A program made the position numbers and the translations under genes. Shown here piece after piece: positions 4,289 through 6,850 of a stretch of 12,758 bases of DNA. The stretch lies in IMG/VR virus record IMGVR_UViG_2636415500_000004; one strand, 5' to 3'. The notes beneath the pieces are model-generated. The model did not search any database. It was not told the origin of the DNA and worked only from the letters and a program-made list of their open reading frames with translations. Origin of the DNA: a virus. Lineage: Duplodnaviria > Heunggongvirae > Uroviricota > Caudoviricetes. The number at the start of each line of letters is the position of its first letter. Position 1 is the stretch's first letter.

Positions 4289-5041
4289 TTATCTCGTCAC
4301 CTTCCTCAATTGCGCTTCCGCGTATGCTTCTTCCTGCCAGCACTTTGTTACCAGTTTACCAATGACGTCCGCATACCCCTTATACCACTGATAATCGGTC
4401 AGGTCTGGTACCAGCTTCTGGACATGACGTCGTGCCAGCGTGGTCGGTAAACGACTAAACCGGTTTCCATTACAACGCCCACAAATCTTATATACCGGTA
4501 CGCCATGAAACCGGGTTCTTTTTTCATCCAGAACAATCCCTTTACCCTTACACCCTCTGCACGCTGTGCTGGCTTCGCCCTTACCATGGCAATGCTGACA
4601 TAGTTCCTTCACCCATTCTTCCTTGATTACAGATTCCCCGCGTCTGTAGTGTTTCACCACTTCGCGCAATACATTATAAAATCCCGTACCTGAACAATGC
4701 TCACAGCGAGCCTTACTTGCCGCAGACCTGGAGTAATCAGCAAAGGCAAAACTCACGAGGTAAGGAATAATCTGTAACCGGATTTCTTCACTCAATTTGT
4801 TCAATGTCGGGTTATCCAGTGCCATCGCGTAATTTAGCAGGCCTTCAATCGCAAACTGAGGGTCCTGAACACCAACTTTTGCCAGAAATAAGGCCAACCC
4901 AAGTGGTGCTTTCGACTGCACCATCCCCTGCGCTGCCATTACATCCGTAATTGTTAAACAACCGGTGCCTGTCGCTGGAGCGTCATCGCTCAATTTTGGA
5001 GATTTTGGGGAGTAATATTTTGGTAAGGCTTCAAGGTTCAT
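4289..5041 (-). CDS. quuQ: Putative late-gene antiterminator Q-like protein (250 aa) with four CxxCxGxG zinc-finger repeats
   Basis: Start at ATG 5041 (MNLEALPK...) with RBS GGAG 7 nt upstream; the track start at 5071 would overlap ydfU. Motifs CEHCSGTG, CQHCHGKG, CRGCKGKG, CGRCNGN. Position upstream of the late promoter and lysis genes. Confidence 0.85.
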   Translation of the reverse strand: MNLEALPKYYSPKSPKLSDDAPATGTGCLTITDVMAAQGMVQSKAPLGLALFLAKVGVQDPQFAIEGLLNYAMALDNPTLNKLSEEIRLQIIPYLVSFAFADYSRSAASKARCEHCSGTGFYNVLREVVKHYRRGESVIKEEWVKELCQHCHGKGEASTACRGCKGKGIVLDEKRTRFHGVPVYKICGRCNGNRFSRLPTTLARRHVQKLVPDLTDYQWYKGYADVIGKLVTKCWQEEAYAEAQLRKVTR

Positions 5042-5054
5042 GCTCGTTCTCCAC

Positions 5055-6104
5055 TTACGCCAGTACGCCAATTGCCAGCGCGCGATCGATAAAACGAAAT
5101 ATCAGCTCCAGTTGGGAGCCATACTTATCTTCAAATGCCACTGTATCCGTATGCAGCTCGTTGTGATGCTTTCTGCACAAAGGCAACACAAAGAGATCAT
5201 GTGCTTTTGTTCCCATTCCGCCCTGCCCGTGACCAATCAGATGATGCGGATCGTCGGCTGGCATACCGCAGCAAGCACACGGCTGTGTCTTAACCCAACG
5301 TGTGTATTTCTCCTTAACCCAGCGGCGACGTTTAGGCAGCTTCATGAAAGATTCCGGAGACTCTGGATCAACGGTGATGCTTACCACCGTCTTTTCCTGT
5401 GGTGATTTTTGTTGCTGGTGGGCGTAAGGCAACGGTGCAAGATTTTTTGTGCGTTGTTTCAATATGCTGGTGGCGGTCTGCTCTCCCGGTACGATGTCGC
5501 TTTCGCGGTACACCGAGCAGATTTTTTCCGCTGGTAATCCCAGCGAACGACGCGATACAGCCTCAGGTAGTGCATCCACCACCTGATTGCAGACCGCCCA
5601 CCAGGATAATTCAGCCAAAGATAATTCCCGCTCCTGCGTACCGCTTATTGCGTGACGGATGACGTCAATCACCCATGCTGTCAGATTTTGTTGAGCAAGC
5701 AGCTCCAGTGATTCCGATGTCTGGTCACGCAGTTGGTTGTCGCAGTGCCAGCACAACACCATTGCGCCGGTACCATAACGGTGAATGACTGTTTCAGTGT
5801 GATGGTAATCGCCATTAGGCCACTGGCAGGATGTAACATGACGTAATAGCCAGTCGGACAATGCGCCAACGCCGCCAGCAGCACGAATCACCCGTTCGTT
5901 ACTAAAAAACGGCAGCAATGTTTTGTCTTCCGCCAGCGGCTGGCGAACGGCAGGAACGACTCCGGATGGCAGATTACGCATGCTTTTTGGTTCCGGTTCC
6001 ACCAGCACTCGAGGATTATGAAATATCTGTATGGATTCACGGCCCGGCTTAAGGACCACCAGCCCAAGCTCAGGCACCAGAACAGGTCTAAGTAATACCC
6101 GCAC
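5055..6104 (-). CDS. ydfU: Prophage protein with C-terminal HNH-like zinc-finger nuclease motif (349 aa from GTG 6104)
   Basis: C-terminus CACCGMPADDPHHLIGHGQ...LCRKHHNELH resembles an HNH (His-Me finger) motif. GTG at 6104 follows the TAA of the upstream ORF by 1 nt; the in-frame ATG at 6143 would overlap that ORF by 38 nt. Recalled as YdfU (DUF968). Confidence 0.8.
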   Translation of the reverse strand: MRVLLRPVLVPELGLVVLKPGRESIQIFHNPRVLVEPEPKSMRNLPSGVVPAVRQPLAEDKTLLPFFSNERVIRAAGGVGALSDWLLRHVTSCQWPNGDYHHTETVIHRYGTGAMVLCWHCDNQLRDQTSESLELLAQQNLTAWVIDVIRHAISGTQERELSLAELSWWAVCNQVVDALPEAVSRRSLGLPAEKICSVYRESDIVPGEQTATSILKQRTKNLAPLPYAHQQQKSPQEKTVVSITVDPESPESFMKLPKRRRWVKEKYTRWVKTQPCACCGMPADDPHHLIGHGQGGMGTKAHDLFVLPLCRKHHNELHTDTVAFEDKYGSQLELIFRFIDRALAIGVLA

Positions 6105-6105
6105 G

Positions 6106-6384
6106 TTACCTCCAGATCCGTTGCTGGAAAGTGCGGGACGCACGTGGTGGGCGTTCGGAATAAGGCAGCCTGACAGAGATTATCCAGTGCCGATAGTCGA
6201 GACTGAGAGCTTTCTTAACCTCGAACCCGCGCCTGCGGTAAGAATGAATCAGCCATTCGGCCTGTTCTGCAGTGCATGGAGGGTGCTGGAACCATTCAGA
6301 CTTGAATGCGTGAGAATACCGCCCGTGCGTGCAGGCAAGAACGGGCGAATTATCAGAATTGTAATATTTTGCGTTGCGTGCCAT
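6106..6384 (-). CDS. Hypothetical protein (92 aa) immediately upstream of ydfU
   Basis: RBS GGAGAAAA 7 nt before ATG 6384; stop TAA abuts the ydfU GTG. May correspond to a small annotated Qin gene (possibly ynfO), but I cannot confirm from memory. Confidence 0.55.
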   Translation of the reverse strand: MARNAKYYNSDNSPVLACTHGRYSHAFKSEWFQHPPCTAEQAEWLIHSYRRRGFEVKKALSLDYRHWIISVRLPYSERPPRASRTFQQRIWR

Positions 6385-6450
6385 CGGTTTTCTCCGGTGG
6401 CACGGTGTTACTCAGCGGGAGTTCAGCCCCGCGCAAGATTGTAGATGAGT

Positions 6451-6702
6451 TTATTCTCCTGAAAAAGCAGAAAAGCCAGCTTTTATTCCGATCTCTTTCA
6501 ATGCCTGTAATGAAGTGACAAACTCACCTTCGCGCAAGATAAATCCGTCCGTGACCCGAGCATCCACAAAATTAATTAACGCAGCCCCATTCTTTCGCAA
6601 ACACATAATGCGGTAATGACTAACAAGATTTCCATTTTCAACGCACACAGCATAGAGGCCATCTTCACAAAAAATTTTACGCAGTTCTTCGATGTTCATC
6701 AT
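6451..6702 (-). CDS. rem: Prophage protein Rem (83 aa), function unknown
   Basis: MMNIEELRKIFCEDGLYAVCVENGN... with RBS GGAAGGA upstream. Position between ydfU and hokD matches Qin. Confidence 0.82.
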   Translation of the reverse strand: MMNIEELRKIFCEDGLYAVCVENGNLVSHYRIMCLRKNGAALINFVDARVTDGFILREGEFVTSLQALKEIGIKAGFSAFSGE

Positions 6703-6820
6703 CAGAATCCTTCCGGATAATTAGCTCTCCCCTTTAAGGGACCATCCCTCTTATCCCTGCGCGCTACTTAAGTATTTTTGATTCTATTCCGGCACCGTCC
6801 AGAACTTCAAACGCGTTGAA

Positions 6821-6850
6821 AATAAAAACAAAAACCCGCCGAAGCGGGTT
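6821..6850 (-). terminator. Intrinsic terminator ending the relB-relE-hokD transcript
   Basis: Minus strand AACCCGC-UUCG-GCGGGUU followed by UUUGUUUUUAUUUUC; about 70 nt downstream of the hokD stop. Confidence 0.65.

Follow-up and report, generated by a model that had tools for sequence, protein, structure and literature searches.

Several systems with which this locus can be compared are already described, and nearest in setting is YbcO (DUF1364, PF07102, PDB 3G27) of DLP12. YbcO and YdfU have both been placed in His-Me finger group 7 (Jablonska 2017, PMC5714182), the HNH-type classification of YdfU also appears in PMC4999995, and both genes directly precede rusA and Q in the nin region. The two proteins nevertheless differ in that YbcO is a single domain of 96 aa whereas YdfU has about 265 more N-terminal residues with a Cys/His cluster of their own, and in their zinc ligands, which are CxxC...CxxH in YdfU and Cx7C...CxxC in YbcO; direct sequence searches gave no significant link between them. 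PdcB of phage P1 (P1_gp107) is a full-length homologue of YdfU, with 26% identity over 91% of YdfU, a DUF968 match at 3.6e-50, a GTG start and the same N-terminal motif, but several of its finger histidines are replaced and its gene lies outside a nin region, downstream of the phd-doc addiction module and upstream of lpa and pacA; pdcB is nonessential and its function is unknown (PMC10695390, PMC10067587). YdfU further shares the Pfam family DUF968 with proteins of Gram-positive phages such as phiETA Orf20, which have a C-terminal zinc-finger HNH and a proposed role in recombination (Curtis et al., 2014, PMC4118853). The gene contexts differ, and the Orf/NinB-like N-terminal domain reported for the Gram-positive proteins (PMC4118853) has no counterpart in YdfU as judged by Pfam, which gave no NinB/Orf signal. 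The statements in PMC5714182, PMC4999995 and PMC4118853 are predictions, and the papers that we found contain no report of nuclease activity for any DUF968 or DUF1364 protein. The lambda NinG/Rap (PF05766) and RusA (PF05866) proteins belong to families other than that of YdfU while their genes occupy the same slot, which has the small nin genes on one side and Q on the other. In most prophages YdfU is accompanied by RusA, and hence YdfU is an addition to RusA rather than a substitute for it.

The window that we analyzed, 12,758 nt in all, corresponds to the Escherichia coli Qin cryptic prophage, and the gene pair of interest lies in its nin region (from the replication genes to Q), between rem and the Q antiterminator gene (Table 1). 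RefSeq/PGAP calls exactly two genes here, ydfU (WP_001265198.1) and the hypothetical protein listed in Table 1. The usual occupant of the space between ydfU and Q, rusA, is missing in Qin; of 106 prophage loci, about 88 have RusA, as detected by homology, in the 1.3 kb downstream of ydfU, and the records of diverged E. coli alleles have rusA annotated directly 3' of ydfU. We consider it very probable that the pair represents two separate nin-region genes of a lambdoid prophage that are probably co-transcribed and translationally coupled, and that YdfU is a His-Me finger protein. Since Qin is a cryptic prophage, it is uncertain whether the host expresses either gene.

Table 1. Features of the small gene-ydfU locus of the Qin prophage (positions are those of the window; gene coordinates include the stop codon).
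Feature	Position	Strand	Remarks
rem	6451..6702	-	upstream of the 92-aa ORF, 66-nt gap; phrog_340, function unknown
Shine-Dalgarno GGAG of the 92-aa ORF	6392..6395	-	7 nt before the ATG; read from the sequence
92-aa ORF, phrog_1212	6106..6384	-	ATG 6384, TAA 6108-6106; RefSeq 'hypothetical protein' WP_012304870.1
Upstream in-frame GTG	6141..6143	-	start of the old 362-aa annotation (P76162); rejected
Predicted mRNA hairpin	6098..6137	-	buries the ydfU Shine-Dalgarno and GTG
Shine-Dalgarno GGAGG of ydfU	6109..6113	-	4 nt before GTG 6104
Junction TAA-C-GTG	6102..6108	-	stop 6108-6106, C 6105, start 6104-6102
ydfU, 349 aa	5055..6104	-	GTG start, TAA 5057-5055
N-terminal Cys/His cluster	5727..5828 (aa 93-126)	-	C93-Q94, C118-W119-H120-C121-D122-N123, R126
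Pfam DUF968 (PF06147)	5067..5627 (aa 160-346)	-	E 1.4e-76, 256.8 bits, cut-off 27.8
His-Me (HNH-like) finger core	5151..5279 (aa 276-318)	-	residues conserved across homologues
quuQ/ydfT, Q antiterminator	4289..5041	-	PF03589; ATG 13 nt past the ydfU stop

The basic anatomy is as a sequence-only reading of this DNA had described it: a 92-aa ORF with a good ribosome-binding site ends one nucleotide before the GTG that opens the 349-aa YdfU frame. The GGAGG of ydfU lies in the final two sense codons of the small gene (TGG AGG, Trp-Arg), and five E. coli alleles share exactly the same 28-nt junction, ATCTGGAGGTAACGTGCGGGTATTACTT, and are all annotated as stop, one nucleotide and start, although the genes themselves are just 83-90% identical, which shows that the arrangement is no chance feature. 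An 18-nt core of the junction is present in at least 120 prophage stretches in IMG/VR. The same reading had proposed tight translational coupling, and this is well supported by the anatomy, with a stop and a start that all but touch, a Shine-Dalgarno sequence inside the upstream ORF and a layout that recurs in relatives across the family. The two genes are probably carried on one mRNA. A promoter and terminator scan found nothing between them, the number of sites being no higher than in shuffled sequence.

A predicted mRNA hairpin would pair the Shine-Dalgarno sequence and the GTG of ydfU with codons just upstream in the small gene. Its 5' arm lies within the final 11 codons of the 92-aa ORF, its stems are CCCGCAC with GUGCGGG, which includes the start codon, and UUUCCAG with CUGGAGG, which includes the Shine-Dalgarno sequence, and its bulge, UAAC, is the stop codon plus one nucleotide. 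The computed free energy, for a region that was picked after the fold was seen, is -19.3 kcal/mol (z -2.9; of 200 shuffles, one folded equally well), and the stability of the 121-nt context is unexceptional (z +0.5). When 120 prophage junctions, representing 23 variants, were threaded on the hairpin, 22 of the 23 variants scored from -11 to -19 kcal/mol, with the 3' arm being fixed by the search pattern that retrieved these junctions; the same 22 keep the arm that pairs with the start codon in their own minimum free energy folds, and seven variants re-pair the inner Shine-Dalgarno stem differently. As the 5' arm is protein-coding, its conservation is inseparable from selection on the protein. 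With the Shine-Dalgarno sequence and GTG occluded in this way, ribosomes finishing the small gene would open the ydfU start or re-initiate at it. The coat and replicase genes of phage MS2 are the classical translationally coupled pair with an occluded downstream start. The Qin pair resembles them in its abutting stop and start, in a Shine-Dalgarno sequence within the upstream coding sequence and in the predicted hairpin hiding both signals, and it differs from such classical pairs in that coupling is here deduced from sequence alone.

The 92-aa ORF is a real, independent gene with a small-protein family of its own. It matches the phrog_1212 profile at E 1.7e-35 over the full length of the profile (aa 27-92 on positions 1-66 of 66), and the family, for which there is no known function, has a core of about 66 aa with invariant residues that correspond to F32, Y49 and W91 of the Qin protein. 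The Qin member has in addition a disordered N-terminal extension of 26 aa. Values of dN/dS between 0.13 and 0.34 among the five E. coli alleles show that the ORF is under purifying selection. In the AF2 model the core (aa 28-91) has the order beta-alpha-beta-beta-alpha, with block-mean pLDDT above 90 over approximately aa 31-70 and with aa 1-24 disordered; a fold search with this model gave no significant match in the PDB (best E 0.4, to generic small alpha/beta domains), and a PDB sequence search with the small-protein profile likewise gave nothing significant. NCBIfam has no match for the 92-aa protein or for YdfU. A search of 1.84 billion representative proteins yielded 60 matches, nearly all of them free-standing proteins of 64-70 aa. 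PdcA of P1 (66 aa), encoded just upstream of pdcB, was considered as a member of the family and rejected.

What follows phrog_1212 genes in the other loci examined is most often a nuclease gene of the nin region. The next gene encodes RusA in about 59 of 68 IMG/VR loci, a set that was retrieved with a single family member and is therefore biased to one subgroup with mostly RusA as the partner. It encodes YbcO in mEp237 and phiES15, where the junction is of the same kind as that of Qin ydfU, a YdfU-like protein in loci L063 and L065 as well as in Qin, and a NinG-like protein in loci L067-L072, in the last case behind a spacer of 52-84 nt that holds an inverted repeat. In GF-2 the downstream gene is annotated as a 'putative recombination endonuclease' and starts 1 nt past the stop of the small gene. 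Across the family, downstream starts range from a 4-nt overlap to 2-3 nt past the stop, and a Shine-Dalgarno sequence within the terminal Trp-Arg/Gly-stop codons is found at the RusA, YbcO, YdfU-like and GF-2 junctions, such that junctions analogous to that of Qin are seen with three other downstream nuclease genes.

These shared junctions admit a broader reading, which we regard as speculative and unlikely, wherein phrog_1212 genes are a conserved 'leader' of the nin nuclease slot (RusA, YbcO, YdfU, NinG) and gate nuclease synthesis. The invariant C-terminal Trp-Arg/Gly-stop codons would double as the ribosome-binding site of the nuclease gene, translation of the small gene would melt the occluding hairpin, and the small protein might also bind or modulate those nucleases or their branched-DNA substrates. 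In another reading, the small protein is dedicated to the nuclease encoded downstream, for instance as its inhibitor, its chaperone or a specificity subunit, and coupling serves to set the stoichiometry. In most of the loci examined a nin-region nuclease gene indeed follows, either immediately or after one or two intervening genes, tight junctions are seen with RusA, YbcO, YdfU and the GF-2 protein, and on its upstream side the small gene has different neighbors in different loci. Such a partnership is improbable, in our view, because at least two unrelated folds are encoded downstream (RusA on the one hand and His-Me finger proteins on the other), which argues against a specific protein contact, because other genes (for the Dcm methylase and NinF) intervene before the nuclease gene in Erwinia phage 59 and Pantoea PA-1, and because, of the inspected phage records with a YdfU homologue, those of SfV, YeP3, EPP-1, P1 and Vibrio phage Cla have a different gene directly upstream of it. 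Moreover, YdfU is matched by 186 phage records and the small protein by just 63, no informative fold match was obtained for the latter, and the conserved gene order of the nin region alone could give the adjacency.

For YdfU itself, the proposal of a His-Me finger at the C-terminus is supported by profile comparisons, and the HNH-type classification of this part is already published. The full DUF968 profile (positions 1-171) is matched above its gathering score, the phrog_96 profile ('HNH endonuclease') is covered end to end (aa 1-349 on positions 1-334 of 334), hhalign aligns the C-terminus with YbcO-like proteins over the whole finger (E 3.5e-4), and HNHc_6 falls just below threshold (26.3 bits against a cut-off of 26.6). 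The finger reads C276-x2-C279, D285-P-H287-H288, H302-D303, C310-x2-H313-H314-x3-H318. The pattern first noticed, CxxC...DxHH...N...Cx2HHxxH, is thus broadly there, but the stretch from the HH to the second Cys contains no Asn, and the last His (H318) comes after three residues rather than two. A candidate catalytic His is found in H287, invariant in one alignment of homologues, or H288, invariant in another; in profile alignments the conserved His of YbcO-like proteins falls on H288, and the HH of McrA on H287-H288. The putative zinc ligands are C276/C279 and C310/H313, H314 and H318 lie on a predicted helix, and P1 PdcB and the Vibrio homologue are the only ones in which these residues are not all conserved. 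The best PDB profile matches of YdfU, both weak, are YbcO (3g27, E 0.65) and the McrA HNH (E 1.1), and a direct PDB sequence search found nothing significant. The AF2 model of YdfU, based on 23 homologues of 46-90% identity, is poor (mean pLDDT 49, with just aa 270-345 reaching 63-85), and Foldseek with this low-confidence model gave nothing significant.

The N-terminal Cys/His cluster of YdfU, the columns of which are invariant in seven homologues of 28-61% identity, may be a second zinc site, and the AF2 model has a beta-hairpin and a helix at this point (pLDDT approximately 50-56). The resemblance of the cluster (CQW...DYHH...LCWHCDN) to a second, degenerate HNH module had no support in hhalign, at E 0.89 (global) and 0.11 (local) against the C-terminus and 0.66 and 0.71, respectively, against YbcO, and this reading was dropped. 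YdfU is most probably a DNA nuclease or a DNA-binding accessory protein that works together with the recombination and junction-resolution functions of the phage, with a C-terminus that would be a zinc-stabilized His-Me finger of the DUF968/DUF1364 group.

The sequence-only reading had linked this finger to packaging or anti-defence functions, and we consider it very unlikely that YdfU is a packaging-associated HNH protein, in the manner of HK97 gp74, or an anti-defence or defence nuclease. The HNH-type motif is present, and there is a weak, sub-threshold match to RecA_dep_nuc (the P1 Ref family, E 0.0037), but in every lambdoid phage and prophage examined ydfU lies between the replication/nin genes and Q, usually next to rusA, and far from the terminase genes, beside which a gp74-type gene, needed for cos cleavage, would be expected. 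P1 pdcB is the lone homologue near packaging genes, being separated from the downstream pacA by approximately 630 nt, an interval that holds lpa; P1 forms plaques without pdcB, whereas pacA and pacB are essential genes. On the defence side, PADLOC at E up to 0.01 returned nothing for the 92-aa protein, YdfU or Rem.

The start of ydfU could in principle lie further upstream, at position 6143, in which case a 362-aa protein would overlap the small ORF and be translated independently of it. The codon there is GTG and not the ATG that had been described, while the 38-nt overlap ascribed to it is correct. The frame is open, GTG is present in four of the five alleles and the older database entry P76162 uses this start, and the P1 record still refers to a 362-aa YdfU. 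The codon is nevertheless GCG in the allele of strain A10, no Shine-Dalgarno sequence can be read before it, and the 13 extra residues fall outside the family profile, with the phrog_96 alignment beginning at residue 1 of the 349-aa protein, and are missing in six aligned phage homologues. In keeping with this, an N-terminus of the form M-R/K-x-L/I-L/I is common to SfV, YeP3, EPP-1 and P1 PdcB, the N-terminus of the Vibrio Cla homologue aligns with a one-residue gap, and the current annotation (NP_416078.4, 1,050 nt) fits the 349-aa protein that starts at GTG 6104. Initiation at 6143 is thus highly improbable, and we take GTG 6104 as the start.

Finally, comparison of homologues for fusions gives two separate genes, and the suggestion that the junction is the scar of an ancestral gene split by a frameshift can be regarded as refuted for practical purposes, since the parts occur independently with other partners and no ancestral or widespread fusion is seen. 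In favor of a split, the two reading frames differ by one nucleotide, the ydfU frame continues open into the small ORF for 25 codons before GTG 6104, and one E. coli genome encodes a 438-aa fusion protein (P0121). The latter is known from one sequence on one contig, and a 13-nt deletion (CAACGGAT/ctggaggtaacgt/GCGG) accounts for it. No second fusion was present in the best 120 of 1,429 matches to a concatenated 92-aa plus YdfU query, among which fusions should rank highest, none was found among 129 close homologues, and a fusion to DUF968 was seen in none of the 60 small-protein matches among the representative proteins. The other long matches to the concatenated query were set aside as internal duplications, alternative upstream start calls, or YdfU-Q and YdfU-RusA fusions in single assemblies. 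The small protein precedes RusA, YbcO or NinG elsewhere and, as noted above, its ORF is under purifying selection. YdfU homologues with 28-61% identity begin at the same residue behind unrelated upstream genes, namely a deoxyribosyltransferase gene in Vibrio phage Cla, a KilA-N gene (Pfam) in SfV, a gene for a similar protein of 269 aa in YeP3, a short gene annotated as LexA repressor in EPP-1 and pdcA in P1. The Qin pair is accordingly made up of ordinary, separate, closely packed prophage genes and is not one broken gene.

Beyond annotation the importance of these findings is slight, as PGAP already calls both genes and the HNH class of YdfU is published. For annotation itself, comparative evidence now backs the 349-aa GTG start of ydfU, and the curated MG1655 record (NC_000913.3), in which no CDS is annotated between ydfU and rem, is still without the conserved 92-aa gene. 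For the biology of the nin region, the small gene belongs to a family that appears from its junctions to be consistently coupled to a downstream nuclease gene. Should coupling or a physical partnership be shown, it would provide the first functional handle on phrog_1212 and on the DUF968/DUF1364 nucleases.

Translation of ydfU is probably coupled to that of the small ORF directly upstream of it, with tight coupling a well-supported reading, as the sequence-only reading had suggested. The final two sense codons and stop of the small ORF (TGG AGG TAA) form the Shine-Dalgarno sequence for ydfU, and the 28-nt junction is identical across five diverged E. coli alleles, as against 83-90% identity in the genes otherwise, with stop, one nucleotide and GTG annotated in all five. 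Similar junctions occur in other phages, in which Trp-Arg/Gly-stop codons likewise serve as the Shine-Dalgarno sequence for the next gene, and the start of that gene overlaps the stop (ATGA, TGATG) or lies 1-3 nt past it. The junction is also predicted to fold into a hairpin with a free energy of -19.3 kcal/mol (z -2.9) for a region selected after folding, the 121-nt context around it not being unusual on folding. Among 120 prophage junctions comprising 23 sequence variants, 22 of the 23 remain stable when placed on this structure, at -11 to -19 kcal/mol (the 3' arm being fixed by the search pattern). The MFE folds of these 22 also keep the start-codon-pairing arm, although in seven the inner Shine-Dalgarno stem forms other pairs. 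Most substitutions in the 5' arm, which is coding sequence, are C-to-U and preserve pairing as G-U, or are located in the loop. The post-hoc region, coding 5' arm and fixed 3' arm are why we infer coupling rather than regard it as demonstrated.

Features of the small ORF-ydfU region, in window coordinates
Feature	Position	Strand	Detail
Terminator-like hairpin	6833-6850	minus	after hokD; with T-run
Sigma-70-like promoter match	6781-6810	minus	just upstream of rem
GGAG	7 nt before small-ORF ATG	minus	
Small ORF	6106-6384 (ATG 6384 to TAA 6108-6106)	minus	92 aa
Predicted hairpin	6137-6098	minus	40 nt; CCCGCAC:GUGCGGG (start codon region), UUUCCAG:CUGGAGG (Shine-Dalgarno); UAAC bulge
Sole nucleotide between small-ORF stop and GTG	C 6105	minus	
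ydfU	GTG 6104 to 5055	minus	349-codon frame
Cys/His cluster of YdfU	5727-5828	minus	aa 93-126; ...CQW...LCWHCDN..R
Gap from ydfU to quuQ (ydfT)	5042-5054	minus	13 nt; without rusA

The anatomy originally described for these two ORFs is essentially correct on checking the sequence, and RefSeq/PGAP calls precisely these genes. A further in-frame start proposed 13 codons upstream, at 6143, does exist and would give a 38-nt overlap with the small ORF, but the codon is GTG rather than ATG; no Shine-Dalgarno sequence precedes it, and it is GCG in the allele of strain A10. A GGAGG stands 4 nt ahead of GTG 6104, the phage profile phrog_96 matches over its full length beginning with the first residue of the 349-aa protein, and the SfV and P1 homologues likewise have GTG at the equivalent position. 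Entry P76162, with the older 362-aa version, has been superseded, though the P1 record still cites it, and the current NP_416078.4, at 1,050 nt, corresponds to the 349-aa version.

The window is the Qin cryptic lambdoid prophage of E. coli (gnsB ... cspI, rzpQ, rrrQ, ydfR, essD, cspB, cspF, ydfT (quuQ), ydfU, hypothetical protein, rem, hokD, relE, relB, ydfV, flxA), and many E. coli chromosomes match the 1.9-kb region around the two ORFs at 100% identity; every feature described for the pair is on the minus strand. Strains HSP425, ETEC4073, and MEI4BO-21 are 100% identical to the window, which is not MG1655 itself, as YdfU reads GEQTATS around residue 208 versus GELTATS in that strain. In the curated K-12 MG1655 record (NC_000913.3, 1644305-1644650) the conserved 92-aa gene is intact but unannotated, with no CDS separating ydfU (b1560) from rem (b1561), whereas PGAP-annotated genomes do call it. 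The terminator-like hairpin and promoter match before rem suggest that rem, the 92-aa ORF, ydfU, and quuQ could be one transcription unit, such sites being no more numerous than in shuffled sequence.

The alternative view, that the two ORFs are the scar of a single ancestral gene split by a frameshift, is refuted. A concatenated small-ORF and YdfU query, built to push any fusion to the top of the matches, gave one among the 120 best of 1,429 matches, P0121 (438 aa, a single sequence on a single contig), whose junction (...QQR-MRVLL...) is accounted for by a 13-nt deletion. A HMMER search of 1.84 billion representative proteins gave 60 relatives of the small protein, nearly all free-standing, of 64-70 aa and aligned to residues 28-92, and none joined to DUF968; a single 338-aa match is a spurious repeat protein. 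The YdfU homologues of SfV, Yersinia YeP3, Edwardsiella EPP-1, Vibrio phage Cla, and P1 (PdcB), at 28-61% identity, are 329-347 aa and all begin at the conserved N-terminus that they share with YdfU. The genes upstream of them are unrelated to the small ORF, encoding, respectively, a KilA-N protein, a 269-aa protein similar to it, a short gene product annotated as LexA repressor, a deoxyribosyltransferase, and PdcA, a protein outside phrog_1212. A few assemblies encode YdfU joined to the antiterminator Q (DUF968 + PF03589; P0123, P0124, and P0126, 607 aa; P0302, P0305, and P0306, 584-587 aa) and one encodes YdfU joined to RusA (P0175), presumably because of a frameshift or misassembly in the individual genome.

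Residues 27-92 of the small protein match the phrog_1212 profile (66 positions, function unknown; E 1.7e-35), and on dN/dS values of 0.13-0.34 among the five alleles its gene is under purifying selection. Fragments aside, the proteins closest to it, 129 homologues that come only from Escherichia or Shigella, are 88-92 aa long. The AF2 model has a confident beta-alpha-beta-beta-alpha core (aa 28-91; block-mean pLDDT >90 over about aa 31-70), while the first 24 residues, specific to Qin, are disordered. Throughout the family the penultimate Trp is invariant, and its codon contributes to the Shine-Dalgarno sequence of the gene that follows.

The locus belongs to the nin region, known members of which act on recombination intermediates, and does not adjoin the terminase genes. 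Most E. coli prophages have hokD, (rem), small ORF, ydfU, rusA, and Q in that order; a RusA homologue is detected in the 1.3 kb that follow ydfU in about 88 of the 106 prophage loci, and in further annotated E. coli loci rusA comes directly after ydfU. The Qin type, with Q directly after ydfU, is a minority (about 10 loci), and hence Qin appears either to have lost rusA or to have a minority arrangement. Phages mEp237 and phiES15 have the parallel order small ORF, YbcO, RusA, Q; many IMG/VR prophages have RusA after the small ORF and others NinG, and in GF-2 the gene 1 nt past the small-ORF stop is annotated "putative recombination endonuclease." In the loci examined (L006-L073 from IMG/VR, L003, L005, and L083), phrog_1212 genes sit upstream of a nin-region nuclease (RusA, YbcO, YdfU, or NinG) and the gene upstream of them is variable. 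The NinG-like junctions (L067-L072) are not tight, with a 52-84-nt spacer bearing a GC-rich inverted repeat (GCCAG...CTGGC) that is terminator-like in L067-L070, where a T-run follows.

The C-terminus of YdfU was correctly read as a His-Me (HNH-type) finger, and the proposed motif was close to the actual residues (C276-x2-C279 ... D285-P-H287-H288 ... H302-D303 ... C310-x2-H313-H314-x3-H318) except that the stretch from HH to the second Cys has no Asn. The Pfam domain DUF968 spans aa 160-346 (1.4e-76), several PHROG "HNH endonuclease" families match the C-terminus, HNHc_6 falls just under its cut-off (26.3 versus 26.6 bits), and RecA_dep_nuc, the P1 Ref family, matches weakly. YbcO-like proteins align end-to-end with a profile of the 71 C-terminal residues (hhalign E 3.5e-4); when that profile is compared with PDB sequences, YbcO 3g27 (E 0.65) and the McrA HNH domain (E 1.1) rank first, both weakly. 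The AF2 model of YdfU is poor, and a Foldseek search with it was uninformative. The assignment is not new, as it agrees with the placement of YdfU/DUF968 and YbcO/DUF1364 in group 7 of the His-Me finger superfamily, with RusA and Q noted as neighbors (Jablonska et al., 2017, PMC5714182), the predicted nuclease function of YbcO (Kaur and Subramanian, 2016, PMC4999995), and the zinc-finger HNH motif described in DUF968 (Curtis et al., 2014, PMC4118853). The otherwise unassigned N-terminal half holds a Cys/His cluster with invariant C93, Q94, C118, W119, D122, N123, and R126, conserved as far as P1 PdcB and the Vibrio phage homologue and without detectable similarity to the C-terminal finger, and this may be a second zinc site.

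A packaging or anti-defense role, as first suggested, is not supported, given the distance of the nin region from the terminase genes, the absence of PADLOC defense-model matches for either protein, and the dispensability of P1 pdcB in CRISPRi and insertion experiments (PMC10695390, PMC10067587). The likeliest role for YdfU is that of an accessory nuclease acting on DNA, or an accessory DNA-binding protein, alongside RusA. Overall the finding is ordinary and already known or annotated, and its modestly new points are the gene missing from the curated MG1655 record and a nin-region small-gene family in which the C-terminal codons double as the ribosome-binding site for the nuclease gene that comes next.
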